From Thermus caldifontis (GTDB lineage Bacteria; Deinococcota; Deinococci; Deinococcales; Thermaceae): a stretch of 32,000 nucleotides of DNA. The position numbers were made by a program, and so were the translations under genes. This document shows positions 7,259-29,845 of this stretch, piece after piece. Below the pieces are notes generated by a model. That model made no database searches and was not told the DNA's origin. It saw only the letters and a list, made by a program, of their open reading frames with translations. Each line of letters opens with the position of its first letter. Position 1 is the stretch's first letter. Where the stretch lies: positions 65,454-97,453 of the forward strand of contig NZ_KZ851833.1 of NCBI RefSeq assembly GCF_003336745.1. Reading direction: 5' to 3'.

Positions 7259-8522
7259 GTCCCTCCTCGGGGTCGTAGGGAGGGGTGAGGACGTAGGCCA
7301 GCACCACCGCAGGTAGGACCAGGGGCAAGGTGGCGTACCCACCCCACTCTGTCGCCAGCAAGGTGGCGGCAAAGGGAGCCCGGGCCACCCCTGCCAGCAC
7401 GGCCACGCCTCCCGCCAGGGCCAGGGCTTCTGGGGGTAGGTCCAGGGGGCCTGGGAGGTGGGCCAGGAAGCTACCCAGAAGCCCGCCCAAGACCAAAGCG
7501 GGGGTATAGGGGGCGCCGTAGGCCCGGACCCCACTGGCCAAAAGGAGCAGGGCCAGCTTGGCCAGGATAAGGTAAAGGAGGGCCTTGGGTGGAATGAGGG
7601 GGGTGGTGGCCACGGCCACAAAGCCCAGGCCCGTACCCAGGGCCTCGGGGAGGAAAAGGAGGGCCAAGGCCAAGGCCAGGCCCAAGAGGCCGTGCCGCCA
7701 GGGAAAGGCCAAGGGGGAGAGGTACCTTTGCAGGAGGCGGGCGCCTTCCATCCAGAGGGTGGCCAGCATGGCGGCTGCCAGGCCCACCAGCGCCCCAGCT
7801 GGCAAGGCCCCTAGGTCCATGGGGGCGCTAAGGGGCAAGAGGGGAGTGTAGCCAAAGAAGGCCCCGTACACGGCGAAGGCCGAGAGGGCCCCGATGAGGG
7901 CTGGGGTTAGGGCCCGGGCCTCGAGGAGGAGGCTCCGGTAGAGGATCTCCGTGGCCAAAAGGGCCCCAGCTACGGGAGCGTGGAGGCTGGCCCCAAGCCC
8001 GGCGGCAAGGCCAGCAAAGGCGAGACCCCCGCCCAGACGGGGAAAGCGCCGGTCCAGGCCCCGGCCCAGCCAAAGCCCCAGCACCCCAAAGGGACCTTCC
8101 CGCCCCATGGGGGAGTAGAGGGAGAGCTGGAGCACCCCCCCTAAAACGGCCCGCAGGTGGGAGGAAGGGGGGCTTGGCCGGTCCTCCCGGGCCTGAAGCA
8201 GGAGAGCGGCAAGCCCCTGCCCCGTCCCCAGAAAGCTAGTGAGGGCGAAGAGGAAGGGAAAGAGGAAGGCGAGGGGCCAGAGGGAGGGTCCAGTGAAGGC
8301 CTGGGCCAGGCCTCCTTCCCCTGGGGGCTCGGGGGCCAGATAACCAAAGAAGAGACCAAAGGCTTCGGTCAAAACCCGAAGGAGCCCATTCAACAGAGCC
8401 ACTAAAAGTCCGGCCAGGGCCCCGGTGAAGGCGCTGTAGAGGATGAGGGGGCCGGTGTGCCGGATTTCCTCATCCCAAAGGGAGGGGAGGTTGAGCTGGG
8501 GGCCGCGGCCCAAGGGGCGCAT
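7146..8522 (-). CDS. ClC-family voltage-gated chloride channel / H+-Cl- antiporter
   Basis: 458 aa polytopic protein with the ClC signature GREGPFGVLG and a GxxxP-type third selectivity segment (GAPYTPAL). Its ATG overlaps the transposase stop (TGATG at 8520-8524). Confidence 0.8.
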   Translation of the reverse strand: MRPLGRGPQLNLPSLWDEEIRHTGPLILYSAFTGALAGLLVALLNGLLRVLTEAFGLFFGYLAPEPPGEGGLAQAFTGPSLWPLAFLFPFLFALTSFLGTGQGLAALLLQAREDRPSPPSSHLRAVLGGVLQLSLYSPMGREGPFGVLGLWLGRGLDRRFPRLGGGLAFAGLAAGLGASLHAPVAGALLATEILYRSLLLEARALTPALIGALSAFAVYGAFFGYTPLLPLSAPMDLGALPAGALVGLAAAMLATLWMEGARLLQRYLSPLAFPWRHGLLGLALALALLFLPEALGTGLGFVAVATTPLIPPKALLYLILAKLALLLLASGVRAYGAPYTPALVLGGLLGSFLAHLPGPLDLPPEALALAGGVAVLAGVARAPFAATLLATEWGGYATLPLVLPAVVLAYVLTPPYDPEEGLREGPATPEESPSETPPQREPPPPGPEAAAGPESPRG

Positions 8523-9463
8523 CAGACATTAACCTCCCCCTTGTCAAGCCCCCCCTTGACACACACAACCCACGCCGCACGAGCCAAGCGGTTAGCAAGG
8601 GCCACCAGAGCCACCTTTTTGGGCTTACCCCGAGCCATCAACGCTTCCACGAAAGACCTATGGAGGGACGACGACCGGTAGGCCGCCACAGCAGCCATAT
8701 AGTACGCACCACGCAGACCCGGCGGACCAAAACGAGAAATACGAGACGACTGGGGCATAACGCCAGATTGAACAATCCTAGGAGTGAGCCCAGTAAAGGC
8801 CGCATATGCACGAGCCGAGCGAAAGCGTCGCAAGTCCCCAGAATAGGCGAGTATCCGTATCGCCAACACCTGACCAATCCCAGGCAAGGACATCAGAGAC
8901 TCAACCCACGATGACAGAAGGTCATCCGAACCCACCACCTGAAGGGCCTCCCTCAGAACACGACGACGGAGCCCCTCCACACCAGCAGGAATATCCCGCA
9001 GAAGGTCAGCCAGCCCAGGGACAACATATTCCCACGCGTGCAAGCGGTTCAGCATACCGACATAATCAGACGTCAGACTATCCCACAAGCGGACTAAAAC
9101 ACCCAGGAGAACCAAAGAATCTTCGGACGGATAGTAAGGCGGTAACTGCTGCCACCTTTCAGCCACAAAGCGGGCAATCAGACGAGCATCCGCGCGATCC
9201 GTCTTAGCACGCCGGAGGAGGGAACGGCTGTAACTCTTCACCGCAAACGGATTTAGAACAACCACATGGAAACCCGCACGATAAAGGGCATAGGCAAGGG
9301 GACGATAATAGGTACCCGTGCCCTCCAAACCAACAACAGCACCAGACGGCAACCGCTGGAGCAAATCCGGAATACCCGCAGGATTAGCCACCCGGAGTAC
9401 CTCACCCTCTGGACCTAGGGCGACATCAAGCCACCTGGAACCAACATCCACACCCACAAACAT
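8522..9463 (-). CDS. IS110-family DEDD transposase/recombinase (313 aa from ATG 9463)
   Basis: MFVGVDVGSRWLDVA (first Asp). LEGTGTYYRPLAYALYRAGFHVVVLNPFAVKSYSRSLLRRAKTDRADARLIARF (DEDD_Tnp_IS110-type). PGIGQVLAIRILAYSGDLRRFRSARAYAAFTGLTPRIVQSG...ISRFGPPGLRGAYYMAA (Transposase_20-type C-domain). The ORF-track start at 9529 and an in-frame GTG at 9484 are alternatives. Confidence 0.9.
   Translation of the reverse strand: MFVGVDVGSRWLDVALGPEGEVLRVANPAGIPDLLQRLPSGAVVGLEGTGTYYRPLAYALYRAGFHVVVLNPFAVKSYSRSLLRRAKTDRADARLIARFVAERWQQLPPYYPSEDSLVLLGVLVRLWDSLTSDYVGMLNRLHAWEYVVPGLADLLRDIPAGVEGLRRRVLREALQVVGSDDLLSSWVESLMSLPGIGQVLAIRILAYSGDLRRFRSARAYAAFTGLTPRIVQSGVMPQSSRISRFGPPGLRGAYYMAAVAAYRSSSLHRSFVEALMARGKPKKVALVALANRLARAAWVVCVKGGLDKGEVNV
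8523..8527. repeat. left junction copy of the 5-nt CAGAC direct repeat (candidate recombination core)
   Basis: ...GGGGCGCAT CAGAC ATTAACC... at the point where the GC-rich host sequence switches to phage-like composition. The same pentamer is at 15179-15183. Confidence 0.5.
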
Positions 9464-9615
9464 ACGCAGAAAAGGGACGGGCACCCAAGGCACTCTTATA
9501 CGCGACCGCGTAGGGCCAACATTAACCACGCCAGGGATTTAGGCCAGTCTGACGCACGACCCCAAAAGGCCAGGAGTGTACACGGCCCGCCCGCCCAAAA
9601 GGAGTATAACCCAGC
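9464..9615 (-). ncRNA. candidate bridge-type guide RNA / structured 5' leader of the IS110-family recombinase
   Basis: A noncoding 152 nt between the TM/Cys ORF stop and the recombinase ATG. Minus-sense GTACACTCC (9581-9573) matches the prophage right end. GGTTAATGT (9527-9519) matches the left end. GCGTCAGAC (9555-9547) is complementary to core plus host flank GTCTGATGC. A TATACT -10-like box lies at 9608-9603. No structure was computed. Confidence 0.4.
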
Positions 9616-9855
9616 CTAACGCCTTAAGCGATAGACCCCACGCCGAGGGTCATACGGACATTGACGAAAAGCCACGTACCGACAATGGCGCTTATAGGCC
9701 TTGACTTGCAAAGCTAACCTATGAGGCATACCACACACAGAACACTTAGCCGGACCAGCTGACGCGGGACCAGTCAAACGCCTCCTCATCCGCAGATAAA
9801 GAAGGTACAGGGTCCAGAGGAGAACGATTAAGAGCATGAGGAGGAGCAGACTCAT
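9616..9855 (-). CDS. small membrane protein with TM helix and CxxC...Cx7C cluster (79 aa), overlapping the zot 3' end in the +1 frame
   Basis: MSLLLLMLLIVLLWTLYLLYLRMRRR (TM plus positive-inside) followed by CSVCGMPHRL...HCRYVAFRQCPYD. It may be the missing TM/periplasmic part of pI. Confidence 0.4.
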   Translation of the reverse strand: MSLLLLMLLIVLLWTLYLLYLRMRRRLTGPASAGPAKCSVCGMPHRLALQVKAYKRHCRYVAFRQCPYDPRRGVYRLRR

Positions 9856-10696
9856 GAGAAGAGACTACATCACCCCACTTCTCCCGTAAAACCTCATGGG
9901 GAGGAACCCCCCGGCGATATGCATCAGCGAGCTCGCGCATGGAGAGGAATGGCAACCCATCCGACGGACGGAAACGCCCCTGTAGGCGAGAAGCATCCCA
10001 CCTCAAACCCATCCGGTCCATGATGGCACGGCGTTTAGGGTCCAGTTCCCGTTGAAGCCGGACAATGGGGGGCTCAAAAATAGCGTGGGTATCATAGCAA
10101 CTAGCAGCCAGAGGGTCCAGGATAACGATGCTATTACGAGCCACGCCCTCAAACACGCCCCGGGTAGTGCGCTGCATTATGCCCAACGACTCATCCATGA
10201 TAGCGGTATAGCGCAGGACAGGACGACCACGAGCCCAGGGACGAAGGAGCAGACGCAACCAAAACGGTGCCGGACGAGCCCAGAAAACATTAGCAACGAG
10301 TTCCCGCACGATTGCATCGACAGAACCATACCGCTGGGTAGCTAAATATACGTCGACGCCGACCTTCCGATGTTGCGACCAGAACGCTATCACCTCCACC
10401 GGAATCAGGTCAAACTGCCTAGACGGCAACCACATATGGGCCTCATCAAACAGGAGAACCCCATCATGGACGTTCAACAACTCAGCATAATCCCGAATCT
10501 CACGGATCATGTCAGCACGCAAGACGGCGTCACGATGCGATAACCTAGCACGCCGACGGAGCCACAGATAAACACGCTCCGGAATCAGACCGAAGTTCGC
10601 ATAGACACGCCGACCCGCCTTAAGAGCCTCCAGACCCTTGATAACCAAGGCGTACGACTTGCCTGAACCGGGCACACCCACGAACGCCTCTATCAT
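9746..10696 (-). CDS. Zot / pI-like P-loop assembly ATPase
   Basis: MIEAFVGVPGSGKSYALV (Walker A at the extreme N-terminus, typical of the Zot family) and VLLFDEAHMW (Walker B). ATGA overlap with the upstream pVI-like gene at 10693-10696. Confidence 0.85.
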   Translation of the reverse strand: MIEAFVGVPGSGKSYALVIKGLEALKAGRRVYANFGLIPERVYLWLRRRARLSHRDAVLRADMIREIRDYAELLNVHDGVLLFDEAHMWLPSRQFDLIPVEVIAFWSQHRKVGVDVYLATQRYGSVDAIVRELVANVFWARPAPFWLRLLLRPWARGRPVLRYTAIMDESLGIMQRTTRGVFEGVARNSIVILDPLAASCYDTHAIFEPPIVRLQRELDPKRRAIMDRMGLRWDASRLQGRFRPSDGLPFLSMRELADAYRRGVPPHEVLREKWGDVVSSHESAPPHALNRSPLDPVPSLSADEEAFDWSRVSWSG

Positions 10697-11124
10697 CGGC
10701 CACCCCGGATGAAGGTAATGATGCGCCAAATAGCCATTAAGCCATAAAACGTACCCCAGAGGCTAAACGCCAGGATAGCATCGGAAACGGGCAGAATACG
10801 GTCAGCAACAGAAAACGCAGGCACGATAGGGTTGATGGCATCCAACAGAACAGTAGGAACAGGAGGAAGAAGAGAAGCCAGGAAAGTCAGAAGCTTTATA
10901 GGCAACACTAGAAGGACACCCAGGATGGAAAACAGAGCAGAGATAGCCCAGGTTAAAAACTCAATAAACCAGTTCCACGCAGTAGCCAGGACGGCGTCTA
11001 CGACAGACCACACCCACCGCAGAACGCCCGTAACAACAGCCCACAACCAGGCAAAAAAGCCAGCGACAGTACCGGCCAGCCACTGGAACAGCTCCAGGAG
11101 GCCCTCAACAATAGCCGCCATCAT
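10693..11124 (-). CDS. pVI-like multi-TM minor virion/assembly protein (143 aa)
   Basis: Very hydrophobic, Trp-rich, with 3-4 predicted TM helices. It sits between the pIII-like gene and zot, as gene VI does in Ff. GGGAGGTGG lies immediately upstream of ATGATG. Confidence 0.5.
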   Translation of the reverse strand: MMAAIVEGLLELFQWLAGTVAGFFAWLWAVVTGVLRWVWSVVDAVLATAWNWFIEFLTWAISALFSILGVLLVLPIKLLTFLASLLPPVPTVLLDAINPIVPAFSVADRILPVSDAILAFSLWGTFYGLMAIWRIITFIRGGR

Positions 11125-11163
11125 CCACCTCCCGACTAACCCCTTCCGCCCCCCACGGCCAGG

Positions 11164-11314
11164 GTACTGGGGGCGGGGACCCCGCCGTCAAGGGTGCAGA
11201 GCAGCCCGCGGGCTGCCCCTGCATGTCCAAACCCCGTCCTCCAACACCGGTAAACGTGCGTGATGGAGGGCAGCCCGCGGCCCAAGCCCTTGACGGCACC
11301 CCGCCCCAGAGTAC
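11164..11314. repeat. long imperfect inverted repeat (about 60-nt arms, 36-nt loop) in a GC-rich intergenic region of the prophage
   Basis: The left arm 11164-11225 aligns with the reverse complement of 11262-11314. Matching blocks are GTACT, GGGGCGGGG, GCCGTCAAGGG and CCGCGGGCTGCCC. The left arm contains the perfect palindrome GCAGCCCGCGGGCTGC; the right arm carries a related imperfect copy (GGCAGCCCGCGGCCC). 11161-11220 is 77% G+C. Confidence 0.75.
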
Positions 11315-11357
11315 CGAACAGTTAAGGGGGCGGAAGGGGAAGAAAGGGCTCATGGCA

Positions 11358-13022
11358 TCACCCCTGGACATCCAGACCACGACGGACCATGAGGAGGACG
11401 AAGGAGAGCCACAGCAACCCCGCCAGGATGGGGCGGAACGACTCGGCCGTCTGGAAAAAGGGCGTCTCGCACGGGCTAATCGTCGCCCGGACTGGACCGA
11501 GAGGGACATCAAACGTGCACTGGGCACCCTCCCGACTCACCGATACCCGGCTCAACGCCAACACGATACCAAACGGAAACTTATCCGCTAGGACCGATTT
11601 CAACTCACGGATAGCCTGCTGCCACCGCTGAACTACCTGCTCCTCCCAGGGTTGGAGCAAACGATCCAACTCAGGCAACGGCTGGCGCTCAACCTCCCTG
11701 GTAGGGAACTCCACCTCTTTCAAACCCGGGACAGGAGGACCGCCCGGCCATTGAGAGTCCTCAGGTTGCTCCTCCGGTTCAGCCTCAGGACGGCTCTCGG
11801 GAGAGTACGGGTCCGTACCCGACTCAATTTCCTTCCAATCGGGAACGCTATCTCCATCCGTATCCTGGTTATACGGAAGCTGATACGGGAACTCATTGGG
11901 GTTACTCGGGTCGGTACCCCGCTTTATCTCGTCGGCATCCGGCCAGCCATCCCCATCCGTATCCGTAGACGGTGCTGGCCGACGACTAGGATGACTGTTG
12001 GGGTCATAGGGGTTAGTCCCTACCTGGACCTCCTCCAGCGTGGTATACCCATCCCCATCAGGGTCCGCATAGGGGTCAGGATACTCATTCGGATTATTTA
12101 TGACGTCCGGCCACGGGACTCCGCGGCGATTCGCCTCCTCCCACTCCACCCAATCCGGGAACCCATCACCGTCCGTATCAATATCACGCCTAGTAAACGG
12201 GTTATCGGTCCACTGGTTAGGGTTTGGGACAGGGTCCAACTGCACGCCCGGCCATGGCTGTGCCATAGACGACGGCTCATGGGCATCCAGATAGCTCGTA
12301 ACCACGTTTTTGATACCCTCAGCTGCACTGGGTTGCTGCTGCAACCACTGATCCAAATCCGGTTTGTCCTCAGACGACACCAGGACATCCTCAGCCCATG
12401 AGAGGTCCTGCAAAAACCTCTGCTGGTCCTGGGACCGCACACCGTTCACCAACGACGACCTAGGCGGCACCCAAATATAATCCTGTGCCCAAACACCCAA
12501 CTGATTCTTCACATATCGGTGCGCATACGCCCTGGCATCCTCTGCAGGACACTCCACGGGTGTTTTAGACCACCCGTTAGGGCTATAGTGATCCACCCAG
12601 CCATCCGTCCTACCGGACACGTACAAGGAAAACCTAAACTTGTACTTACAGGAGTATACCGTCGACGACCCAGACCCCTGGGACACGGGATAGGCCTGAT
12701 ACTGGCCAGCAGCAGCCCAAACCGTGGGCGCCCAGTAATACCAATCATCCAATGGGGTACCCGTATCCCGACGCGCAATGTCATAAAACCAATGCAGAGC
12801 ACCCGACACCAACGCGGCACCCAGGAGCACGCCCCCCGTCCACCGCACATATCGGCCTACCGTGGCCTGACGGCGAAACTGACGGTTAGACCACTCAATA
12901 ATCTCATCCAGGGTCATGCCCTGGACCACGCCCTTCACGGCATCACGAAACTGTTGGGAGGCAAGGGCGGACCCCCCACCCAGCGAGACAGCCAATACCA
13001 GGAGGAAGATCCGCCCCCACAT
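11358..13022 (-). CDS. pIII-like adsorption/minor coat protein with signal peptide, four DxDGDG calcium-binding-type repeats and a C-terminal membrane anchor (554 aa)
   Basis: N-terminus MWGRIFLLVLAVSLGGGSALASQ. Repeats are DTDGDGFPDW.., DPDGDGYTTLEEVQVGTNPYDPNS, DTDGDGWPDADEIKRGTDPSNPNE and DTDGDSVPDWKEIESGTDPYSPES. C-terminus FRPILAGLLWLSFVLLMVRRGL. The ATG lies 1 nt after the coat-gene stop. Confidence 0.65.
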   Translation of the reverse strand: MWGRIFLLVLAVSLGGGSALASQQFRDAVKGVVQGMTLDEIIEWSNRQFRRQATVGRYVRWTGGVLLGAALVSGALHWFYDIARRDTGTPLDDWYYWAPTVWAAAGQYQAYPVSQGSGSSTVYSCKYKFRFSLYVSGRTDGWVDHYSPNGWSKTPVECPAEDARAYAHRYVKNQLGVWAQDYIWVPPRSSLVNGVRSQDQQRFLQDLSWAEDVLVSSEDKPDLDQWLQQQPSAAEGIKNVVTSYLDAHEPSSMAQPWPGVQLDPVPNPNQWTDNPFTRRDIDTDGDGFPDWVEWEEANRRGVPWPDVINNPNEYPDPYADPDGDGYTTLEEVQVGTNPYDPNSHPSRRPAPSTDTDGDGWPDADEIKRGTDPSNPNEFPYQLPYNQDTDGDSVPDWKEIESGTDPYSPESRPEAEPEEQPEDSQWPGGPPVPGLKEVEFPTREVERQPLPELDRLLQPWEEQVVQRWQQAIRELKSVLADKFPFGIVLALSRVSVSREGAQCTFDVPLGPVRATISPCETPFFQTAESFRPILAGLLWLSFVLLMVRRGLDVQG

Positions 13023-13023
13023 A

Positions 13024-13164
13024 CTAGCCCTTGAGGAACTTCTTCGCGTAGCGCCAAGCAGCCGCAAGACCGATCGTCAACGCCAACACGGCCGCGCCTG
13101 CACCCGCGATAGCCAGAATATACTGAGTAACCGTATTAGCCACCTCTGCTGGCTCGAATCCCAT
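13024..13164 (-). CDS. inovirus major coat protein (pVIII-like, 46 aa); not in the ORF track
   Basis: Hand translation gives MGFEPAEVANTVTQYILAIAGAGAAVLALTIGLAAAWRYAKKFLKG: acidic N-terminus, one hydrophobic helix, basic C-terminus. It is preceded by AAAGGAGGTGAGGT. From memory it closely resembles the 46-aa coat protein of Thermus phage PH75. Confidence 0.85.
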   Translation of the reverse strand: MGFEPAEVANTVTQYILAIAGAGAAVLALTIGLAAAWRYAKKFLKG

Positions 13165-13210
13165 ACCTCACCTCCTTTCTGGACCTCCACGGGGTTAGCC
13201 CCGATTGTCC

Positions 13211-13312
13211 CTAGAGCCTCCTGAGCAGGTTCCGGAGGAACGCAGCCACAACACCAGCCGCAACCCCCCACCAAAAGGCCGTATAGAGCTCGGCCACATC
13301 AAACCCCTCCAT
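13211..13312 (-). CDS. small coat-like hydrophobic protein (33 aa, pVII/pIX-like)
   Basis: Hand translation gives MEGFDVAELYTAFWWGVAAGVVAAFLRNLLRRL: acidic N-terminus, TM helix, basic C-terminus. Position matches genes VII/IX of Ff. Confidence 0.5.
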   Translation of the reverse strand: MEGFDVAELYTAFWWGVAAGVVAAFLRNLLRRL

Positions 13313-13403
13313 AGAGCCTTCCCATGTACCGGTACGCCGCTAACAGAGCGTACGGGATACTAGCCAGACCCAGGAACCACCCGAACCATTCAACAGGGTT
13401 CAC
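13299..13403 (-). CDS. small hydrophobic protein (34 aa, pVII/pIX-like)
   Basis: The GTG start overlaps the upstream stop (GTGA) and follows GGGAGGTGA. Translation (V)NPVEWFGWFLGLASIPYALLAAYRYMGRLYGGV. Confidence 0.45.
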   Translation of the reverse strand: MNPVEWFGWFLGLASIPYALLAAYRYMGRLYGGV

Positions 13404-13492
13404 CAATCACCTCCCGACAGAAGACCCGCAATAACACCCAGCCCAAACGCAAAAACCAGCAGGCTTTGCCACAACTCAGGAGGAAGGAGCAT
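13400..13492 (-). CDS. small hydrophobic protein (30 aa)
   Basis: MLLPPELWQSLLVFAFGLGVIAGLLSGGDW. The ATG overlaps the 3' end of the pV-like gene. Confidence 0.4.
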   Translation of the reverse strand: MLLPPELWQSLLVFAFGLGVIAGLLSGGDW

Positions 13493-13778
13493 TTTCCTTC
13501 TTACCAGGTACCACAGGAGCCACCAGCGTAGCCCCCGTCACCAACGGCCGCACCTCATTAGGACGGCCATAACCATTGGCCACCGGCAGGTCCATGTCAA
13601 GCTTGTAAATGCCCGGGAACACGCGCATGGTATCCGCCACCTCAGGCAACGCCTCTAGTTCAGCAACTGCCAGCCCCCTCTGATTCGGGTTACGAGGAGT
13701 AGAAGCTACCGTAACCCTAGCGCCATGCGTCCCGTCTTTCCGCTGAAAGATGCTCACACCCAAAACCAGAATCTGCAT
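13476..13778 (-). CDS. putative ssDNA-binding protein (pV-like, 100 aa)
   Basis: ORF 13476..13808 trimmed to ATG 13778, which follows GGAGGTGCAGC. Size and position (directly after Rep, before the small coat genes) match gene V. No diagnostic motif was recognised. Confidence 0.4.
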   Translation of the reverse strand: MQILVLGVSIFQRKDGTHGARVTVASTPRNPNQRGLAVAELEALPEVADTMRVFPGIYKLDMDLPVANGYGRPNEVRPLVTGATLVAPVVPGKKENAPSS

Positions 13779-13788
13779 GCTGCACCTC

Positions 13789-15153
13789 CTAACCAGGAAC
13801 ACCACCAAACGCCCACTTTTCCGGCATCAACCCAACAGCTGCTAGTTTCCGTTGCCACGACCTCGTGTATGCCACCGATGCCTCTTTAGCCAGTCTCTCC
13901 CTTTCGTCCATATCCGAGCCCAACGCTCTGAACGCTCCTACCCACCAGTCCCGAAAGCTGACGTTAAACTTCGCCGCAGCCACTAGCGCCGTCAGAAACG
14001 CACCCATCGCCTGCTTCGCTAGCGCCACCGGATCAACCCGCCTGAACAGCCTATCCCGCACCAGTTTTCTCCTATCACCCCCCTCCCCAAAGGCCCGTTG
14101 TACACGGACCCATACAGGATCAACGGGAACATCACGCAGACGCCCATATCTGTGCGCCCTGTCCCCATCCCGCAACACCAACCACGCTCCCGTCAAATAC
14201 GCCCACACGGACGGCAACGCCCACAGGAACGTATCCCAGTCCCGCAAATCTGTCCCATCGCCCTCCACAACCATCTCCCGAAGGGCCTCGGTAGTCAACT
14301 GAAACTCCACCCGGACCACTTCCCGAAGCGGCTCATCGCCAAGCTCCTCATACATAGCCAGCAAATATCTAGTGGCCGGTTTAACCGTAGCCTCAACCGA
14401 TTTGGAATAGACCCTCGCCATCAATGGACCACGACCAAAAACAAATCCCGACCACTGACGACGGTACACGAATGCCGATGCCTGCTCCAGACCCTCCACC
14501 CACGACCCCGGAACCTCCAGTCGCTTTTGGGGGGGCGTGTTACTCATGGGCCCCTCCTGGGGGGCGGGCCCGGCTTCGCCGGGCTCCGCACCCCCCAGGG
14601 AGTAGAACCCCCTCACATGACTCCTGGACGTGAACCGGTGCAGGTCCTCAATCTGGAACGTCCCAGGCTCCACATCTATATCCACAAACACATCAGCACG
14701 GGATACCTGAACACGCTCAGGACGAACACCAGTAAGATTCTCAGCCGCCCTCAGCACCCACTCCACAACGGCGTTAGCATCCCTATCCGCATACAGCATG
14801 TAGGTCCCCGTGAACTCCACACGCATGGCCGGAAAGTCCCTGCGCTGCGTAGTATCCTTCACGGAGCTAAGGCGGACGAACACCAACCCCCCAAAGGACA
14901 GCTGCCAGGCATAGTGCCTAGTAGGCTGCACCACTGCCGCCTCAAACAAACGGTCATGGTCCGACGGATTCGGCAACGGAAAATAGGCATCAATCCCCCA
15001 GAAAATCGCACCCTCGGGGTCCCGACGATACAACTCCTTCAGGCTATCTAGCGTGTCCTCAATATCATCCGGCAGCTGATACGCACCGTCCGGCCAATAC
15101 AGATTAACGACCAGGGTGTCTATGCCGTACCCCAGGACCCTAGGAGAGCTCAT
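13789..15153 (-). CDS. rolling-circle replication initiator (pII / Phage_CRI-like), 454 aa
   Basis: The N-terminus MSSPRVLGYGIDTLVVNLYWPDG resembles the fd gene II N-terminus (MIDMLVLRLPF...). It is the first gene of the inovirus module. The family assignment needs a profile search. Confidence 0.55.
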   Translation of the reverse strand: MSSPRVLGYGIDTLVVNLYWPDGAYQLPDDIEDTLDSLKELYRRDPEGAIFWGIDAYFPLPNPSDHDRLFEAAVVQPTRHYAWQLSFGGLVFVRLSSVKDTTQRRDFPAMRVEFTGTYMLYADRDANAVVEWVLRAAENLTGVRPERVQVSRADVFVDIDVEPGTFQIEDLHRFTSRSHVRGFYSLGGAEPGEAGPAPQEGPMSNTPPQKRLEVPGSWVEGLEQASAFVYRRQWSGFVFGRGPLMARVYSKSVEATVKPATRYLLAMYEELGDEPLREVVRVEFQLTTEALREMVVEGDGTDLRDWDTFLWALPSVWAYLTGAWLVLRDGDRAHRYGRLRDVPVDPVWVRVQRAFGEGGDRRKLVRDRLFRRVDPVALAKQAMGAFLTALVAAAKFNVSFRDWWVGAFRALGSDMDERERLAKEASVAYTRSWQRKLAAVGLMPEKWAFGGVPG

Positions 15154-15160
15154 GAGTCCG

Positions 15161-16273
15161 TTATAAGAGGGAGTGTACCAGACTTATGGGGGTTCCCCGG
15201 GTCAGGCGGGGGGTGGGAAGGCCCAGGGCCCGGTAGCCTCCCCGGGTTAGGGCCCGGACCAGGAGCCGGGGTTCCGCCTTCCCCCAGAGGGATAGCGCCT
15301 CGTTTTTCACGTCCAGGTCAGGGCTGCTGGCCCGGGAGTCCGTGCCCAGGGCCAGCTCTACCCCGTGGCGGGCGTAAAGCCCCAAGGGGGCTTCCCCCAC
15401 TTGGAGGTTCCCGTTGGACCGGGGGCATAGGACCACCTTGCTGCCCGAATCCGCCACCATCCGCACCTCTTCCTCATCCACGTGTACCCCGTGCACCAAA
15501 ACGGTATCGGGCCCCAGGACACCAAGGGTCTGGAGATAGCGCACGGGGGTGAGGCCCGGGGCCTTCCAGGGGGTTCGGCTAAAGCGCCGGTACACCCCGG
15601 CCAGGGGGCCTTCCCCCGTCCTCAGGAAGGCCACCTCCTCCCGGCTTTCCGCGGCGTGGACCATGAGGGGAAGGCCCTGGGTGTGGGCGTAGTGGGCTAG
15701 TTTCTGCAGGAGGGGAGGGCTCACCGAGTAGGGGGCATGCGGGGAAAGGCCTATCCTGACCCGCCCTTCCCTCTTGCGCCAGGCTTCCACCTTGGCCCTC
15801 ACCTTCTGGAACATCTCCTCCGCATCCTGGGGATCCGGGGCGAAGACCTCGTAAAAGGCTATGCCGGGCAAAGGGCTTTCCTGGAGGAGAAACTCCATCA
15901 CCTCGTCCTGGAAGACGATGTCCGCAAAGGCGCCCACCCCGCTTTGCACCAGCTCCTCGAGGCCCCTTTGCGCCGCCCTAAGCTCCCGCTTTTCCCGGTG
16001 GGCCACCACGTGGGGAATGAAGCCGGAAAAGGGCCCTTGATAAAGGGGATGCAGGGAGAGATCCAGGTGGGTGTGGGCGTTCACGGGGGGTGGGAAGAGG
16101 GCTTTTCCCTTGTGGATCACCTCCGCCTGGGGAAAGCGGGCCTTTAGTTCCTCCAGGCTTCCCTGGCCCACCACCGTGCCCCCTTGCACGGCGAGGGCTC
16201 CATGGAGCATGGGGGTGCCGAAGCCGGTGTACACCACTTCGGCGGTCCAGAGCTCAGTCTTTAGCCAGAACAT
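15161..16273 (-). CDS. amidohydrolase-superfamily metallohydrolase (ATZ/TRZ, nucleoside-deaminase-like subgroup), 370 aa
   Basis: VNAHTHLDLS (HxH), HAAES, VHGVH and LGTDS metal/catalytic motifs. Start trimmed to ATG 16273, overlapping the GNAT stop. The last ~8 codons and the stop are encoded by phage-like low-GC DNA. Confidence 0.7.
   Translation of the reverse strand: MFWLKTELWTAEVVYTGFGTPMLHGALAVQGGTVVGQGSLEELKARFPQAEVIHKGKALFPPPVNAHTHLDLSLHPLYQGPFSGFIPHVVAHREKRELRAAQRGLEELVQSGVGAFADIVFQDEVMEFLLQESPLPGIAFYEVFAPDPQDAEEMFQKVRAKVEAWRKREGRVRIGLSPHAPYSVSPPLLQKLAHYAHTQGLPLMVHAAESREEVAFLRTGEGPLAGVYRRFSRTPWKAPGLTPVRYLQTLGVLGPDTVLVHGVHVDEEEVRMVADSGSKVVLCPRSNGNLQVGEAPLGLYARHGVELALGTDSRASSPDLDVKNEALSLWGKAEPRLLVRALTRGGYRALGLPTPRLTRGTPISLVHSLL
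15179..15183. repeat. right junction copy of the CAGAC direct repeat
   Basis: ...GGAGTGTAC CAGAC TTATGGGGGTTCCCCGGG... The composition returns to GC-rich host sequence a few nt further on. Confidence 0.5.
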
Positions 16274-23352: not shown

Positions 23353-24036
23353 GTGCGCATCAGCGTGGTGATCCCGGCCCACAACGAAGAGACCCTATTG
23401 CCAGGAGCCTTGCAAGCGGTTTTGCAGCAAACCCTGCCTCCTTTTGAGGTGATCGTGGTGGACAATGCCTCCACCGACCGCACGCGGGAGGTGGCGGAGG
23501 CGCTTGGGGTACGGGTGGTGTACTGCGCCAGGAAAGGGGTGGCCTATGCCCGCCAGGCGGGACTACTGGCTGCCCGGGGGGAATGGGTGGCCATGACCGA
23601 TGCCGATTCCCTGCCCCTTCCCACGTGGCTTCAGAGCCTGGCCCACCGTGCGGAAGGCGCAGTGGCCCTTTACGGACCCTTGCGCTTTTATGGGGTGTCG
23701 CCTTGGGCGGGCGTGGTTTCCGAGTGGGGCTACCGGGCCTTCCTGAACCTGATGGCCTTCTTGGGAAGACCCAACCTGGCCGGGGCCAACATGATGGTTC
23801 TGAAGGAGGCCGCCTTGAAGGTGGGAGGCTTCCCGGAGGTGGAAGCCAGGGAGGATGTGCTTTTGGGTTGGAGGCTTCGCCAGATAGGAAAAGTGCGGTA
23901 TGTGCCCGAAGCCCTGGTCCTAACCTCGCCCAGAAGGTTAAAGGGGGGTTGGGGAAGGTTTTTGGCCCAACAGCTTAGAAATCTCTTGGGTGATTCTCGA
24001 GGGTACTTCGGGGAAGACGGGGGAAGGGAAAGATAA
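23353..24036 (+). CDS. family 2 glycosyltransferase (GT-A fold)
   Basis: (V)RISVVIPAHNEETLLPGAL...VIVVDNASTDRTREVAE and TDADS (DxD). Confidence 0.8.
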   Translation: MRISVVIPAHNEETLLPGALQAVLQQTLPPFEVIVVDNASTDRTREVAEALGVRVVYCARKGVAYARQAGLLAARGEWVAMTDADSLPLPTWLQSLAHRAEGAVALYGPLRFYGVSPWAGVVSEWGYRAFLNLMAFLGRPNLAGANMMVLKEAALKVGGFPEVEAREDVLLGWRLRQIGKVRYVPEALVLTSPRRLKGGWGRFLAQQLRNLLGDSRGYFGEDGGRER

Positions 24037-25186
24037 GCCTCTGGGGCTCCACCCGCAGAATCTCATTGGCTTCGTCGTACACCGCGACAATCTTCTCGGC
24101 GATTCGCTCCGCAGACCGCTCCATGGCCCAGGCCCGGGCTTGTAAGCTGAAATGCCGGCGTTTGTCCTCATCCCGCAGGAGATCCAAGGCCTTTTCCGCC
24201 AGGGCCCGGTGGTCGCCCGGAGGCACCAGGTACCCGGTTTTCCCCTCCACCACCCCCTCCAGGACCCCCTCGGCTCCCACGGCCACCACGGGTACCCCCA
24301 TGGCCTGGGCCTCCCAGATGACCAGCCCCTGGGTTTCGGTCTCGCTGGCGAACAGAAAGACTTCCGCCATCCGGTAGTACCCGCCGATATATCGGTAGGG
24401 CACGGTGCCCAAGAAGCGTACCCGGTCTTCTATACCCAACTGGGCCGCCAGGCGCTTTAGGCTTTCCAGTTCCGGCCCCTCGCCTATGTGCGCCAGGAAG
24501 ACGTCCTCTTCCCGGGCCATCTCAGCTACAGCCCTGAGGACCACATCAAAGGATTTTTCCTTGCCTAGCCGACCCACGGTGATGAGCCGCCTTTTGCCCT
24601 CCGGCCAGGGGGAGGGTGAGGGAAGGGGCGCTTCCTCCAGAATGCGGTTGTCAATCCCTGTGGGAATGACCCGAATGGGCCTTTGGATGCCGTAGCCCTC
24701 CGCCAAGCGCTTGACTGGCTCCGTGGGGGCGATGACCACCTCCACCCGGTTGTAAAAGGCTTTGGCGAGCCTAGGGATGATGCCCGTGTATTTGTCCAGT
24801 ATGGCTAGCCCGGGAACGTAATGGGCGTACTTCTCGTAGTGGGTGTGGAAGGTGGAAACATGGGGCAGGTTTTTGTTGCGGGCGATCCTTAGGCCCCATA
24901 CTCCCAGGGTTAAGGGGGTGTGGGTATGGATGAGCTCAAACTCCGTGGGCAGGTGGCGGGAAGAGGGTAGAGCGATCTGCTGCCCCTCGTAAAAGGGGTA
25001 AGCCACGGAGGGGACCCGGACCACGCCTTCTTCTCCTTCCGGAGCCTCCGGATGATGGGGAGCCACCACCCAGGCCTCGTGTCCCATTCGCCGGAGCTCC
25101 CTAAGGAGAAGGTAGACGCTGGTGGTCACTCCGTTGGGGTTGGGGAAGTAGACGTCGGTGAAGAGGCCTACGCGGTAGAGACGCAT
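23975..25186 (-). CDS. family 4 glycosyltransferase (GT-B; glucosyl-diacylglycerol synthase-like)
   Basis: 403 aa. MRLYRVGLFTDVYFPNPNGVTTSVYLLLRELRRMGHEAWVVAP... C-terminal ETQGLVIWEAQAMGVPVVA (EX7E-type motif). Confidence 0.8.
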   Translation of the reverse strand: MRLYRVGLFTDVYFPNPNGVTTSVYLLLRELRRMGHEAWVVAPHHPEAPEGEEGVVRVPSVAYPFYEGQQIALPSSRHLPTEFELIHTHTPLTLGVWGLRIARNKNLPHVSTFHTHYEKYAHYVPGLAILDKYTGIIPRLAKAFYNRVEVVIAPTEPVKRLAEGYGIQRPIRVIPTGIDNRILEEAPLPSPSPWPEGKRRLITVGRLGKEKSFDVVLRAVAEMAREEDVFLAHIGEGPELESLKRLAAQLGIEDRVRFLGTVPYRYIGGYYRMAEVFLFASETETQGLVIWEAQAMGVPVVAVGAEGVLEGVVEGKTGYLVPPGDHRALAEKALDLLRDEDKRRHFSLQARAWAMERSAERIAEKIVAVYDEANEILRVEPQRLIFPFPRLPRSTLENHPRDF

Positions 25187-25188
25187 GC
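25083..25188. repeat. 106-bp repeat, copy 1 (5' end of the intact GT4 gene)
   Basis: Direct comparison with 27600-27705 shows 103/106 identical. Mismatches are at 25114, 25130 and 25151. Confidence 0.9.
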
Positions 25189-25197
25189 AAGGCTAGT

Positions 25198-26040
25198 TTA
25201 CCAGGGAAGAGGTTTTAGGCCATCTTTTAAGCCCTTGAGGATTGTGTACCAGCCTCGCTTGCCTTGCCTGATGAGGTAGACTATGGCTTCGCCGGCAAAG
25301 TGAAGGAAAAGAAGAAATCGCCAAAATAACGGCAGGTTCTTAGAACGCATTATCCAAAGACGGTTACGAACCTGATAATAATACCGGCCGTCTTTAGAAT
25401 CCGCAGGCGTGTAGATGGCAGTGGTTTTGTGGACCACTATACTAGAGGGATTGAGAAACGCGTTACCAAGGCGAAGGAAGTATTCAACGTCATCATTCCA
25501 TATAAAGAATTCTTTTTTCGGCAGGCCTTTTTTAAAAATGGCTTCCCTTTTTATTAGTACCGAAACAAAACTTATCCAGACCACCTCTTTGAGTGCACAT
25601 GGGGTGGGGAGAAATCTTAATTTAGACCAAGGAGAGTTCATAGGGTGGACCTTACCGTTGGTCCAGAGAACTCTACTGCCTATTGCGTTTACGGCCCTTC
25701 CTTTTTGATTCAGACAGGCTGCCGCTTCTAAGAGCTTTTCAAGAGCGGACTCTCCAGGTATGGTATCGTCATCCATCACCCATATCCAGTCATACCCTGC
25801 TTCATAAGCCCGCTTCATCCCCTCATGAAAGCCTCCGGCACCCCCCTGGTTCTCCGGCAAGGCCAGGACCTCCACCTGGGGGAATTCTTCCTTGAGCATC
25901 TCCCGGGTCCCGTCGGTGCTGGCGTTGTCCACCACCAGGACATGGTCCGGGGGGCGGGTTTGGGATAGCACTGCCTGCAAGCACTCCCGCAGGAGTTCCT
26001 TGCGGTTGTAGGTTACGATCACCGCACACACCCTATCCAC
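25198..26040 (-). CDS. family 2 glycosyltransferase (GlfT/rhamnosyltransferase-like), compositional mosaic
   Basis: CAVIVTYNRKELLRECLQAVLSQTRPPDHVLVVDNASTDGT...WVMDDDT (DxD). Start set to GTG 26040, 4 nt after GAGGAGGTG; the ORF-track start is a TTG at 26055. Adjacent to glf. Confidence 0.8.
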   Translation of the reverse strand: MDRVCAVIVTYNRKELLRECLQAVLSQTRPPDHVLVVDNASTDGTREMLKEEFPQVEVLALPENQGGAGGFHEGMKRAYEAGYDWIWVMDDDTIPGESALEKLLEAAACLNQKGRAVNAIGSRVLWTNGKVHPMNSPWSKLRFLPTPCALKEVVWISFVSVLIKREAIFKKGLPKKEFFIWNDDVEYFLRLGNAFLNPSSIVVHKTTAIYTPADSKDGRYYYQVRNRLWIMRSKNLPLFWRFLLFLHFAGEAIVYLIRQGKRGWYTILKGLKDGLKPLPW

Positions 26041-27154
26041 GGGCCACCTCCTCAAACACCTTCAGGGCTCTTGCCACCGCCTGGTCCATATTGTAGTAGC
26101 GGTAATCGCCAAGCCTCCCGGCAAAGAGGACGGTCTTCAGCTTGGCCGCCTCCTTCTGGTAAAGCCTGAGCCGCTCCTCGTTCTCCTCCCGGGGAACCGG
26201 GTAGTAGGGCTCGTTCCTTCCCGTTTCGTAGGCCTCTGGGAACTCGTAGGCCACCGTGGTGTGGGGCAGGTAGGTTTGCCCGGTGAGGTGCTTGAACTCG
26301 GTGATCCGGGTGAAAGGCTGGTCGCCTGGGTAGTTCACCGTGGCCACCTCCTGGAACCAGGGCTTGGCATGGTGCTCCAGACGGAAGCGCAGGGAGCGGT
26401 AGGGCAGGGGGCCATGGAGGTAGCCGAAAAACTCGTCGATGGGCCCAGTGAAGATGAGGCGGTCAAAGCGCACCTCCCCCTCCACCTCCTTCCAGTCCGC
26501 CCCCAGGAGCACTTTGATGTGGGGATGGGCCAGCATCCTTTGGAAAAGGGCGGTGTACCCCTCCTTGGGCATGGCCTGATAGGTGTCCTGGAAGTAACGC
26601 TGGTCGTAGCTCACCAGCACGGGGACCCGTCCGGTGACCGTGGGGGAAAGATCCTCGGGCCTCAGGCCCCACTGCTTCAGGGTGTAGCCCTCAAAGACGT
26701 TTTTGTACACGTAATCGGCCAGAAAGCGGAGATCGGGGTCCTCCACCTCCTTGAGCTTGAGGATGGGGACCCGGGCCCCGTAGCCGAAGTGGGCGATGAG
26801 CTTTTCCTCTAACCTCTCGGCAAGCCTTTGGGAGAAAAGGGCCCGCAAAGAGGCCAGGCTGAAGGGGAGGGGGATCTCCTGGCCCTCCGCCACCGCCCGT
26901 ACCCGGTGGTAGTAGGGGCGCCACTCCGTGAATCGGGAGAGATAGTCCCACACCTTTTGGCTGTTGGTGTGGAAGATATGGGGACCGTATTTGTGCACCA
27001 GGACCCCGTTTGCATCGTACTCGTCGTAAGCGTTGCCCCCCACGTGCTGGCGGCGGTCCACCACCAACACCCTCTTGCCCAGTTCCTTGGCTATGCGCTC
27101 CGCCAGGGTGGCCCCGGTGAAACCGGCACCCACGATGAGGTAGTCTATTTTCAT
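26033..27154 (-). CDS. glf: UDP-galactopyranose mutase
   Basis: MKIDYLIVGAGFTGATLAERIA (FAD GxGxxG) ...HKYGPHIFHTNSQKVWDYLSRFTEW...YYPV...GRLGDYRYYNMDQ. 373 aa. Confidence 0.92.
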   Translation of the reverse strand: MKIDYLIVGAGFTGATLAERIAKELGKRVLVVDRRQHVGGNAYDEYDANGVLVHKYGPHIFHTNSQKVWDYLSRFTEWRPYYHRVRAVAEGQEIPLPFSLASLRALFSQRLAERLEEKLIAHFGYGARVPILKLKEVEDPDLRFLADYVYKNVFEGYTLKQWGLRPEDLSPTVTGRVPVLVSYDQRYFQDTYQAMPKEGYTALFQRMLAHPHIKVLLGADWKEVEGEVRFDRLIFTGPIDEFFGYLHGPLPYRSLRFRLEHHAKPWFQEVATVNYPGDQPFTRITEFKHLTGQTYLPHTTVAYEFPEAYETGRNEPYYPVPREENEERLRLYQKEAAKLKTVLFAGRLGDYRYYNMDQAVARALKVFEEVARG

Positions 27155-27703
27155 ATCTCCTCCAAAGTCTTAGAAAGCTGCTTGGCGCTAGCCTCCAGGG
27201 TGTGGTGGGCGAGGACATAGGTTCGCGCCTCTTCCCCCAGCTGTTTGGGTAGGTTCTGCAGGGCATAGGCTAGGGCGGAAGGACGAGGGGGTATGAGCAG
27301 ACCTGCTTTCCCATGGCGTATTACCTCCTTCTGTGCGGGGATCGGTGTGGTTACCACGGGGAGCCCTGAGGCCATGGCCTCGAGGGTAGCCAGGCTTTGG
27401 TTCTCTCCTAAAGTGGGCAGGAGCATGGCATCCACAGCCCGGTAAAGTTCAGGCATGTCGTTGCGGCGCCCGAGACAGTGCACATTTCTTAGGTTGAGGA
27501 GGCGGGTAGTGCGCTGCCAAAGCCCCATGAGTTCCCCTGTTCCCACCAGGAGAAAGTCTACCTCCTCTTGGCCCCGGAGGAGCGGCTAGGGCGCTGTGCC
27601 CCATTCGCCGGAGCTCCCTAAGGAGAAGGTAAACGCTGGTGGTCACCCCGTTGGGGTTGGGGAAGTACACGTCGGTGAAGAGGCCTACGCGGTAGAGACG
27701 CAT
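27151..27703 (-). pseudogene. disrupted GT4 glycosyltransferase: 35-codon N-terminus, foreign 31-bp filler, then a frameshifted C-terminal ~140 codons
   Basis: ORF 27449..27709 starts MRLYRVGLFTDVYFPNPNGVTTSVYLLLRELRRMGH and then degenerates. ORF 27151..27546 is in a different frame and carries only the GT4 C-terminal half (LGRRNDMPELYRAVDAMLLPTLGENQSLATLEAMASGLPVVTT). About 200 codons of a normal GT4 are missing. Confidence 0.8.
27565..27595. repeat. 31-bp exact copy of an internal mfd segment, at the breakpoint of the GT4 pseudogene
   Basis: CTCTTGGCCCCGGAGGAGCGGCTAGGGCGCT is identical to 30000-30030, same orientation. The flanking bases differ on both sides. Confidence 0.9.
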
Positions 27704-27705
27704 GC
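27600..27705. repeat. 106-bp repeat, copy 2 (5' end of the GT4 pseudogene)
   Basis: See copy 1. Same orientation, 2.5 kb apart. Confidence 0.9.
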
Positions 27706-27709
27706 CCAT

Positions 27710-28879: not shown

Positions 28880-28999
28880 ACGGAGTTCACCTCGGTGTGG
28901 CTTGAATCTACTGAGGATCAGGGACCGTGTAGCCTTCCCCGTGGCAGGAACCAACACGTTGCCATTATAGGTCGGGCATTGCCTTTGACTTAGTATAAA

Positions 29000-29845
29000 A
29001 TGGCTCACATGGAACTAGGCCTGATCACCGATACCGCTGCGGACCTGTCCCCCAGGATCCTGGAGGAGGAGGCCGTGGGCTTGGTGCCCATCTATGTCCA
29101 CCTGGCGGGCAGAAGGTACAAGGACTGGCAGGAACTTACCCCGGATGCCCTCTACCAAGCCATGCGGGCAGGGGCCGAGCCTGTGACCGAGCCTCCAGGG
29201 GTGGAGGACTTTGCCGAGGTTTATGAGCGCTACCTCCAGGTATACGACCGCATCCTTTCCCTCCACGTTTCGGGGGAGCTTTCCAAAACCGTGGATAGGG
29301 CGCGGGAGGCCGCCCTCAAGGTGGCCCCCACCCGCATCCGGGTGGTGGACTCGGGGATGGTGTCCGCAGGGCTTGGGGCCATGGTGCTCAGGGGGGTGGA
29401 AATGCTGAGGAAGGGGGCGGAGGAGGAGGCGGTGGTGCGGGAGTGGGAGAGGCTTAAGCATTCCAGTCTCTACTTCAGCGTGGCCGACTTATCCCACTTG
29501 GCCCGGAATGGCCGCCTTCCCCGCTTCGGGGAGGTGGTGGGCAACCTCCTCGGCCTTCGCCCCATCTTGCGGATTGAGAAGGGGCATATACGCTTCCTCA
29601 AAGTGGCCAGGGAGGGTGCGGTGCCCGAGGTCCTTGCCCGCCTCGTCCTCCAGGAGCTCAAAGGACGGCCTGCCCGCATCACCATCGCCCATACCGACGC
29701 CAGAACCGAGTGGATTGAGGGCTTAAAGAAAAGCTTGGAGGGGGCTTTGCGCCTGGAAAAGGGGCGTATCACGCGAAGCGGGGCCACCATCGCCGCCAAC
29801 GTGGGCCTTGGGGCTATAGCGGTCCACGCCTACTCGCTAGAATAG
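29000..29845 (+). CDS. DegV-family fatty-acid-binding protein
   Basis: MELGLITDTAADLSPRILEEEAVGLVPIYVHLAGRRYKD... and ...HVSGELSKT. 281 aa. The second ATG at 29009 is an alternative start. Confidence 0.8.
   Translation: MAHMELGLITDTAADLSPRILEEEAVGLVPIYVHLAGRRYKDWQELTPDALYQAMRAGAEPVTEPPGVEDFAEVYERYLQVYDRILSLHVSGELSKTVDRAREAALKVAPTRIRVVDSGMVSAGLGAMVLRGVEMLRKGAEEEAVVREWERLKHSSLYFSVADLSHLARNGRLPRFGEVVGNLLGLRPILRIEKGHIRFLKVAREGAVPEVLARLVLQELKGRPARITIAHTDARTEWIEGLKKSLEGALRLEKGRITRSGATIAANVGLGAIAVHAYSLE

Follow-up and report, generated by a model that had tools for sequence, protein, structure and literature searches.

A Thermus filamentous prophage that probably integrates through an IS110-family recombinase and a candidate bridge RNA

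The genome of Thermus caldifontis contains a filamentous prophage (an inovirus) within the 32,000-nt stretch of contig NZ_KZ851833.1 analysed here, which is referred to as the window. Its last gene encodes an IS110-family recombinase, and the noncoding leader in front of that gene holds a candidate bridge RNA. On the minus strand the genes follow the order II (replication endonuclease), V, small coat genes, VIII, III, VI, I/Zot, a small Zn-ribbon open reading frame (ORF), the candidate RNA and the recombinase. Pfam and PHROG assignments cover the complete inovirus set, namely endonuclease II, a single-stranded DNA-binding protein, a 46-residue major coat protein, an adsorption protein, protein VI, a homologue of Zot/protein I and the IS110-family recombinase. 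The order II-V-VII-IX-VIII-III-VI-I and the homologous proteins (PHROG E values of 1e-21 to 1e-164) place the element among the Thermus inoviruses (Paulinoviridae, Thomixvirus-like), and its DNA is 68-71% identical to that of the Thermus phages Zuza8, Zuza27, phiOH16 and OH3. Within 8.5-15.2 kb the GC content drops to about 0.56-0.59, with strong skew. The prophage, its junctions and the recombinase gene are located as follows:

8524 to 15165, minus strand: inovirus prophage, from empty-site BLAST, Pfam/PHROG assignments, identity to phages, and GC content and skew.
8519 to 8534, minus strand: attR, consisting of the left donor (LD) GGTTAATGT at 8534-8526, the core CT at 8525-8524 and the host right target (RT) GATGC at 8523-8519.
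15160 to 15178, minus strand: attL, consisting of the host left target (LT) GTACACTCC at 15178-15170, a host CT at 15169-15168 (positions 6-7), the core CT at 15167-15166 and the phage right donor (RD) TATAAC at 15165-15160.
8522 to 9463, minus strand: IS110-family DEDD/Ser recombinase of 313 residues, Pfam PF01548 and PF02371.

The boundaries of the prophage are fixed by an empty site, GGTACACTCCCTCTGATGCGCC, which is the uninterrupted locus in two related Thermus genomes. In a BLAST comparison of this site with the window, host homology extends up to 15166 and begins again from 8526 on, with an overlap of 3 nt, TCT. Because the empty site and both junctions share TCT, the crossover lies within it and the core is CT. 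The prophage comprises 8527-15165 plus one TCT, and the circle measures 6642 bp counting one TCT. The host insertion site, GTACACTCC-CT-CT-GATGC, joins the stop of an amidohydrolase gene, eight orthologues of which terminate in ...SLVHSL*, to the start of a ClC channel gene, whose ATG (8522-8520) lies inside the RT of attR. The phage site attP is GGTTAATGT-CT-TATAACGG; excision is predicted to produce the circle junction GGTTAATGTCTTATAACGG and to restore attB, GGTACACTCCCTCTGATGCGCC.

This map departs from that of the initial annotation, which had taken the pentamer GTCTG as the core. That candidate is rejected, as the empty site places only its centre, CT, as core. The copy at 15179-15183 is entirely host sequence and present in the empty site, whereas the copy at 8523-8527 consists of GT from the phage, the CT core and G from the host; the resemblance of the pentamer to a target-site duplication is a coincidence. 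The empty-site comparison also means that GTACACTCC at 15178-15170 is host DNA, and that the right end of the prophage lies 12-13 nt further in than had been proposed. A model of the target as LT-CT-RT with attP as GGTTAATGT-CT-CTTATA is likewise rejected, because the empty site has CTCT.

The recombinase consists of a DEDD RuvC-like domain (PF01548, E 9.5e-20) and a Tnp domain with the catalytic Ser (PF02371, E 8.2e-21). It matches the IS621 transposase 8WT6 (E 3.5e-34) and ISCro4 9T56 (E 8.8e-35). Its sequence is identical to that of a Thermus caldifontis protein, and the ClC gene of the host flank falls in assembly GCA_030550655.1. Residues E47, D89, D92 and S233 are invariant among 23 relatives, and D6 lies in an MFVGVDVG motif. 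The Pfam assignment bears out the initial description of the last prophage gene as an IS110 DEDD recombinase (ORF 9463-8522). No Shine-Dalgarno sequence stands before its ATG, also as described. The stop codon does span the junction, as had been noted, with the difference that the junction is CT and not the pentamer: of the TGA, T8524 belongs to the core, and G8523 and A8522 to the host.

Between the small Zn-ribbon ORF and the recombinase, the leader has the organization of a two-loop RNA:

9475 to 9596, minus strand: candidate bridge RNA (RNAalifold consensus), with closing stem P1 (9596-9589 with 9482-9475) around two stem-loops.
9541 to 9588, minus strand: stem-loop 1, the target-binding loop, with an outer stem, a 10+10-nt internal loop and an inner hairpin.
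9489 to 9532, minus strand: stem-loop 2, the donor-binding loop, with an outer stem, a 10+10-nt internal loop and an inner hairpin.
9603 to 9608, minus strand: TATACT, a -10-like hexamer 6 nt upstream of P1.

This structure is conserved. In the consensus fold of 10 sequences with 31 pairs, 93% of cells are paired, against 34-52% when the partners are slid. Compensatory changes occur in six pairs, mainly in the closing stem (GGGGATAG/CTATCCCC, GGGGCAGGC/GCCTGCCCC, GGGGTGAG/CTCACCCC and others), and the inner hairpin UGGCC...GGUCG is invariant in both stem-loops. The RNA measures about 120-135 nt across elements and about 120 nt in the window. The TATACT hexamer, reported initially, is present, and in each element inspected a TAnnnT hexamer precedes P1 by about 4-6 nt. 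A covariance model trained on the aligned leader sequences scores 118 bits in the window and 76-128 bits at the same position in other phages. Its matches are confined to the leader before the recombinase of this inovirus clade (beside the recombinase in L066, a Thermaceae metagenome-assembled genome, or MAG; L numbers are working labels). Unrelated viral contigs (800 kb) give no match, and among ordinary IS110 loci (1.1 Mb) scores stay at or below 22.8 bits except for L066 itself, another inovirus, at 49.8 bits. The weak match of 22.8 bits (E 0.03) falls just upstream of the recombinase, 33% identical, in Duganella IS110 (L079, L080 8837-8912) and hints at a distant likeness to ordinary IS110 bridge RNAs.

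In the bridge RNA of IS621, each loop repeats the top-strand sequence on its 5′ side and carries the complement of the top strand on its 3′ side (PMC11208160). Its handshake guides are complementary to positions 6-7 of the non-cognate DNA, and a GT core is tolerated (PMC11208158). On the map given by the empty site, the leader in the window reads like an RNA of this type, in which a target loop is followed by a donor loop, each with 8-9 nt of guide on the 5′ side and 4-7 nt, core included, on the 3′ side:

9573 to 9581, minus strand: left target guide (LTG) GUACACUCC, identical to the host top strand at 15178-15170.
9547 to 9556, minus strand: right target guide (RTG) UGCGUCAGAC, predicted to pair GCGUC with host GATGC (one G:T) and AG with core CT, and ending in the handshake AC.
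9519 to 9527, minus strand: left donor guide (LDG) GGUUAAUGU, identical to the phage left end at 8534-8526, which abuts the core CT.
9493 to 9502, minus strand: right donor guide (RDG) CGUAUAAGAG, predicted to pair UAUA with phage TATA and AG with core CT, and ending in the handshake AG.

The handshakes are reciprocal. The terminal AC of the RTG is complementary to GT at donor positions 6-7, before the donor core, and the terminal AG of the RDG is complementary to CT at target positions 6-7, before the target core. A 17-mer composed of the LDG, CT and the reverse complement of the RTG fits this junction better than any other place in the window (15/17), and a composite of LTG and RD finds attL as its best match in the whole 32-kb window.

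The four leader motifs from which the initial annotation started lie where it put them on the minus strand: GTACACTCC at 9581-9573, GCGTCAGAC at 9555-9547, GGTTAATGT at 9527-9519 and TATAAGAG at 9500-9493. Their matches also hold, and it is the naming of the matched DNA that changes. GTACACTCC is identical to 15178-15170, which is host DNA rather than the prophage right end, and so represents the left target guide. GGTTAATGT is identical to the left end at 8534-8526, where GT belongs to the phage and not to the core; GCGTCAGAC is complementary, with one G:T pair, to GTCTGATGC (8527-8519), in which the core is CT rather than GTCTG. TATAAGAG, complementary to CTCTTATA (15169-15162), corresponds to the right donor guide plus handshake and lies partly over the host CT. 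It is this combined pairing of core and handshake that made CTCTTATA appear as an 8-nt match at attL.

Related elements supply comparative evidence. In about 13 other Thermaceae inoviruses the leader of the recombinase holds this scaffold with guides of another sequence, and the guides of each element match its own attP or its own prophage-host junctions. The elements compared include the phages phiOH16, Zuza8 and Zuza27, prophages of Thermus sp. PS18, T. albus (L149), T. javaensis (L148), a Thermus MAG (L136), Meiothermus (L135) and Calidithermus timidus, two metagenomic lineages and one IMG/VR contig. Best-match tests of single guides over regions of 90-200 nt proved too noisy. Composite 17-mers were used instead, taken from scaffold positions only (LDG, CT and the reverse complement of RTG or RDG) and searched over the entire locus. 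For 10 of 11 elements the 17-mer fits the recombinase-side junction better than any other place, at 15-17/17 for an element's own junction and 12-15/17 for non-self comparisons; the exception, L144, is off by a 1-nt register. Composites of LTG and RD locate attL in five of six integrated elements, and in L106, L066 and T. albus the guides match at 9-10/10. The matches persist in Zuza8, Zuza27 and L136, in which attP is inverted relative to the genes.

Guides and sites also change together across the roughly 14 elements. L106 and T. javaensis share a host locus in which the RT reads AGGGCC and AGGACC, respectively, and the RTG is changed accordingly. All five internal guide mismatches are of the G:T or U:G type, and AG occupies the core position of both 3′ guides in 13 of 13 tabulated elements (one attL of PS18 has GT in place of the CT core). 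The handshake dinucleotides covary as well, being CT/CT in the window, AG/AG in PS18 and AT/AT in L066. The handshake of the target-binding loop agrees with the donor in 10 of 14 elements, and that of the donor-binding loop agrees with the target in two of six, the window and PS18. The two-loop scaffold with guides for each element's own junctions, obeying the strand rule of IS621 and agreeing with it in guide length, supports the central idea of the initial annotation, that the leader encodes a bispecific bridge RNA, and the guides covary with their ends and sites in homologous loci as that idea predicted. For the circular phages the guides predict the host targets CCAGTATAC-N(0-4)-CTTTCCC for phiOH16, GGGGTAAGC-N(0-4)-CTTTGGG for Zuza8 and TGGGTAAAC-N(0-4)-CTCAAGG for Zuza27.

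Several observations on individual elements accompany this comparison. In six of them (window 8519-8525; L133 9928-9950; L141, L148, L106 and L149) the core lies 0-6 nt upstream of the ATG of a host gene, often in the host ribosome-binding sequence, as CT-G-ATG, CT-ATG, CT-AGGACC-ATG, CT-AGGGCC-ATG, CT-AAGGC-ATG and CT-AGGGGT-ATG, and at these six attR junctions the final phage gene runs into the host gene. The inovirus of L066 (8992-10025) is more distant, with a recombinase 36% identical to that of the window. This recombinase runs opposite to the bridge-RNA-like element and to the phage genes, and the guides still match the junction GTGGGGTAT-CT-ACCCC. In L135, a second 15/17 match to the element's own LDG+CT+RTG composite, CATAGAGGTCTACACCG, lies at 10954-10970 in a host gene of the YebC/TACO1 family, 9 kb from the prophage, and may be due to chance (about 0.002 expected) or represent a secondary site. 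Further searches added few elements. A peptide-pattern scan of genome contigs, drawn from the 23-sequence recombinase alignment, returned almost exclusively unrelated IS110 among the matches listed, L066 alone being useful. Protein-based scans of metagenome and viral contigs gave nothing relevant, and two DNA-pattern scans of viral contigs gave mostly chance matches, with only L106 and L119 (a copy of OH3) real.

Some results weigh against a bridge RNA with these guides. Within the window, 2000 dinucleotide-preserving shuffles of the leader, compared with the two junction windows of this stretch alone, give P ~0.03 for two shared 9-mers and P ~0.009 for five 8-mers, a weaker significance than the initial estimate of about 0.03 per end. 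The single-sequence fold of the leader is no more stable than shuffles (z -0.13) and was uninformative. Rfam (4227 models, at gathering thresholds and at E up to 10) returns no match in 9400-9700. For a promoter of the RNA there is the -10-like hexamer only; no -35 was found, and a promoter scan of the window came back empty. The handshake positions mismatch in L137, L141 and L144. The register of the LTG varies, while the 3′ guides and the LDG keep a fixed one: in the window and PS18 the 9-nt host match stops 4 nt before the crossover, those 4 nt being the handshake dinucleotide and the core, and in L137, L141 and L144 the match takes in the core, as in IS621. This varying spacing between LT and core may reflect two functional geometries or a tolerance of offset half-sites. 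In L136 the LTG matches the true junction at only 6-7/9, and its best LTG and RD composite, TGGGCGAAC-TCCAAG (13/15), falls at 14168-14182, 4.3 kb from the prophage. Finally, the ~14 elements are mutually related, so that the cases are not fully independent.

With these points weighed, it is very probable, judging from sequence comparison, that the temperate Thermus inovirus integrates by means of its IS110-type recombinase and a cis-encoded bridge RNA of about 120 nt. In the double-stranded circle, the second internal loop of the RNA would pair with the phage site GGTTAATGT-CT-TATAA, the first loop would pair with the host site GTACACTCC-CT-CT-GATGC, and the recombinase would then swap strands at the CT core. 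The join of the recombinase end to gene II is what the donor guides specify, in agreement with the earlier suggestion that the whole inovirus circle serves as the IS110 donor. In topology, the phage corresponds to an IS110 element with a long left end expanded to contain all the inovirus genes.

The likeness to IS621 is extensive. Both systems have a DEDD RuvC-like domain and a Tnp domain with a catalytic Ser, an RNA immediately 5′ of the recombinase, and a target loop that precedes the donor loop. In IS621, and by prediction here, bottom-strand pairing of a loop's 5′ side covers 9 nt and top-strand pairing of its 3′ side covers the core plus about 5 nt. The CT core, dinucleotides placed like handshake guides 3′ of the core guides, the long left end and the short right end are also held in common. 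The differences lie in the setting and dimensions. The donor here is a replicating virus genome of 6.6 kb rather than an insertion sequence (IS) of 1.3 kb, and the RNA, closed by a long-range stem, measures about 120-135 nt rather than 177 and has no sequence-level Rfam match. In contrast to IS621, the left target match can lie 4 nt from the core, attP may point either way with respect to the genes, and the host is thermophilic.

A further shared feature with IS621 and IS110 elements (PMC11208160) is a sigma-70-type promoter that is reconstituted across the core in the circle, at the junction of right and left ends. Its two halves lie at opposite ends of the prophage:

8542 to 8547, minus strand: TTGACA, the -35 half of the junction promoter, 18 nt from TATAAC in the circle.
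15160 to 15165, minus strand: TATAAC, the -10 half and at the same time the right donor arm, preceding the gene II ATG at 15153.

The first gene downstream of the reconstituted promoter is phage gene II and not the RNA, which lies 5.6 kb away from it, another departure from IS621. The circular genome of phiOH16 (L001 1116-1145) contains TTGACA-18-TACAAT (11/12) across the attP core, 11 nt before the gene II ATG. TTGACA lies between the recombinase gene and LD in most elements examined (Meiothermus L135 has ATTGACAA), and 18 nt beyond it a TAnAAn hexamer forms the right donor arm. The host sequence that now precedes TATAAC in the prophage contains no -35 by eye. With attP between the -35 and -10 of the strong sigma-70-type gene II promoter, integration would part the two halves and excision would rejoin them, and we infer that integration silences gene II. 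A promoter divided in this way points to lysogeny under a very simple switch, one without need of a repressor. The -10 of the window stands 6 nt from the gene II ATG, and a leaderless gene II mRNA is suggested.

A broader proposition is favoured only slightly. It holds jointly that these phages would be the first described virus family to use an RNA-guided bridge recombinase for lysogeny, that the phage genome is the donor, that an attP located in the promoter of the replication gene switches the lytic operon off and on, that retargeting takes a few loop nucleotides, and that the system is thermostable, with a compact RNA tolerating either attP orientation and variable spacing between LT and core. 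If true, the elements would represent retargeting in nature to no fewer than nine different sites, frequently at the very start codon of a host gene, and the variable spacing would be a geometry not described for IS621.

The alternative that best survives, though improbable, is that the half-sites in the leader act as DNA, either as accessory or arm-type sites or as operators bound by the recombinase, and that the conserved fold is an attenuator of recombinase expression. Many phage attP regions carry arm sites, a T-rich stretch follows the closing stem just before the ATG (as read from the sequence), and we infer transcription of the leader from sequence only. Repeats in DNA, however, leave unexplained that the phage-borne copies of the host flank change with the insertion site, and the 5′-side copies are always direct and the 3′-side copies always inverted, exactly as in IS621. 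The internal loops of an RNA fold that covaries are exactly where the half-sites lie, the five internal mismatches all allow wobble pairing, and the recombinase is homologous to recombinases solved in complex with a bridge RNA.

Still less probable is an explanation already raised in the initial annotation, where an independent IS110 of about 1.06 kb was offered as the alternative. An autonomous element of about 1.1 kb (about 8524-9600) would have landed at the edge of an unrelated inovirus prophage, and the phage would integrate otherwise. The recombinase and its leader do have the size and layout of a minimal IS110, and OH3, closely related to phiOH16, is a viable phage even without the recombinase (PMC11437467). 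Yet OH3 equals phiOH16 minus nucleotides 100-937, an 838-bp deletion, and the virion-derived circular genomes of three phages hold the module at the same place, between gene I and gene II. What the donor guides describe is the recombinase 3′ end joined to sequence upstream of gene II, which in the prophage is 6.6 kb distant, and not the junction of a 1.1-kb unit, and there is no end of the GGTTAATGT-CT type near 9600. Every homologue with context follows Zot at the inovirus end, at differing host sites; a stand-alone recombinase unit was seen in no locus with context, and the window contains a single copy. The element, at 6.6 kb and with a complete inovirus, also falls outside the strict ISfinder definition of an IS110 insertion sequence (about 1.2-1.5 kb, transposition functions only, multicopy). 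The OH3 deletion (L119, the IMG/VR copy, 28-152; L001 100-937) removes the donor loop and most of the recombinase and leaves the target loop, recombinase 3′ end and attP in place.

Chance similarity in GC-rich, low-complexity sequence near a prophage boundary, for which the modest within-window shuffle P of ~0.01-0.03 and non-self 17-mers reaching 12-13/17 by chance might speak, is effectively refuted by the 17-mer, LTG and RD, and mismatch tests, with 10 of 11 independent predictions hitting the correct junction at 15-17/17 and further elements doing likewise.

The IS110 transposase of Thermus inoviruses was proposed in 2024 to have a likely role in integration (PMC11437467). That study describes no RNA, attP, attB or core, and the records of its phages phiOH16, Zuza8 and Zuza27 (LC210520, PP554188, PQ109074), which agree with the prophage in the window in gene order and recombinase position and share 68-71% nucleotide identity with it, leave scaffold, guides, junction promoter and Zn-ribbon ORF unannotated. 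The use of an IS110 transposase by such phages is not a new proposal in itself. The filamentous prophages Nf and MDA of Neisseria use an IS110-like (Piv/irg) transposase for integration (Kawai et al. 2005, as cited in PMC11437467). By that description they resemble the prophage in the window, as inoviruses that end in an IS110-family recombinase and integrate site-specifically without a tyrosine or serine integrase; no paper was found stating that they carry a bridge RNA. In expanded IS110 loci, a recombinase and its bridge RNA mobilize many kb of extra DNA, and the complementarity of LTG and RTG is used to validate boundaries, as it is here (bioRxiv 10.64898/2026.08.14.744561, available portion). 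The cargo described in that portion of the preprint comprises for the most part genes for resistance or of plasmid origin, along with some matches to phage references, and no complete, autonomous phage that forms virions as the element. In the full-text literature, subscription titles aside, no paper was found in which a bridge RNA is connected with filamentous phages, with the attachment site of a prophage or with Thermus. IS110 bridge RNAs have been known since 2024, and a bridge RNA with a filamentous phage as its donor would be new.

Phage integration classically relies on a tyrosine or serine integrase or on XerCD. The choice of attB by base pairing would be a different solution, and one that would explain why close relatives occupy unrelated host sites. 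It would provide a concrete, testable integration mechanism for Thermus inoviruses, possibly also for the Nf/MDA phages of Neisseria, and would link IS110 elements and filamentous phages in evolution. The elements would also offer material for genome engineering, as naturally diversified, thermostable recombinases of about 300 residues with short RNAs (~120-135 nt) and known cognate sites.

One further gene of the prophage lies next to the candidate RNA:

9616 to 9855, minus strand: conserved ORF of 79 residues with a four-Cys motif (from translation), between Zot and the bridge RNA.

Its motif reads CxxCGMPH...C-x7-CPYDPRRG (CxxC...C-x7-C), and the peptide, which has no Pfam or PHROG match and is unannotated in the phage GenBank records, is also encoded in Zuza8, Zuza27 and PS18. 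This Zn-ribbon ORF could be an accessory or directionality factor. Elsewhere in the window, a second low-GC stretch (0.53-0.61) at 24000-29000 encodes GT1, GT2 and GT4 glycosyltransferases and UDP-galactopyranose mutase; it is a polysaccharide-synthesis cluster and no mobile element. An S-adenosylmethionine (SAM) riboswitch (84 bits) lies at 1643-1779 on the minus strand, and a tRNA-Pro(CGG) gene at 1894-1970 on the plus strand.

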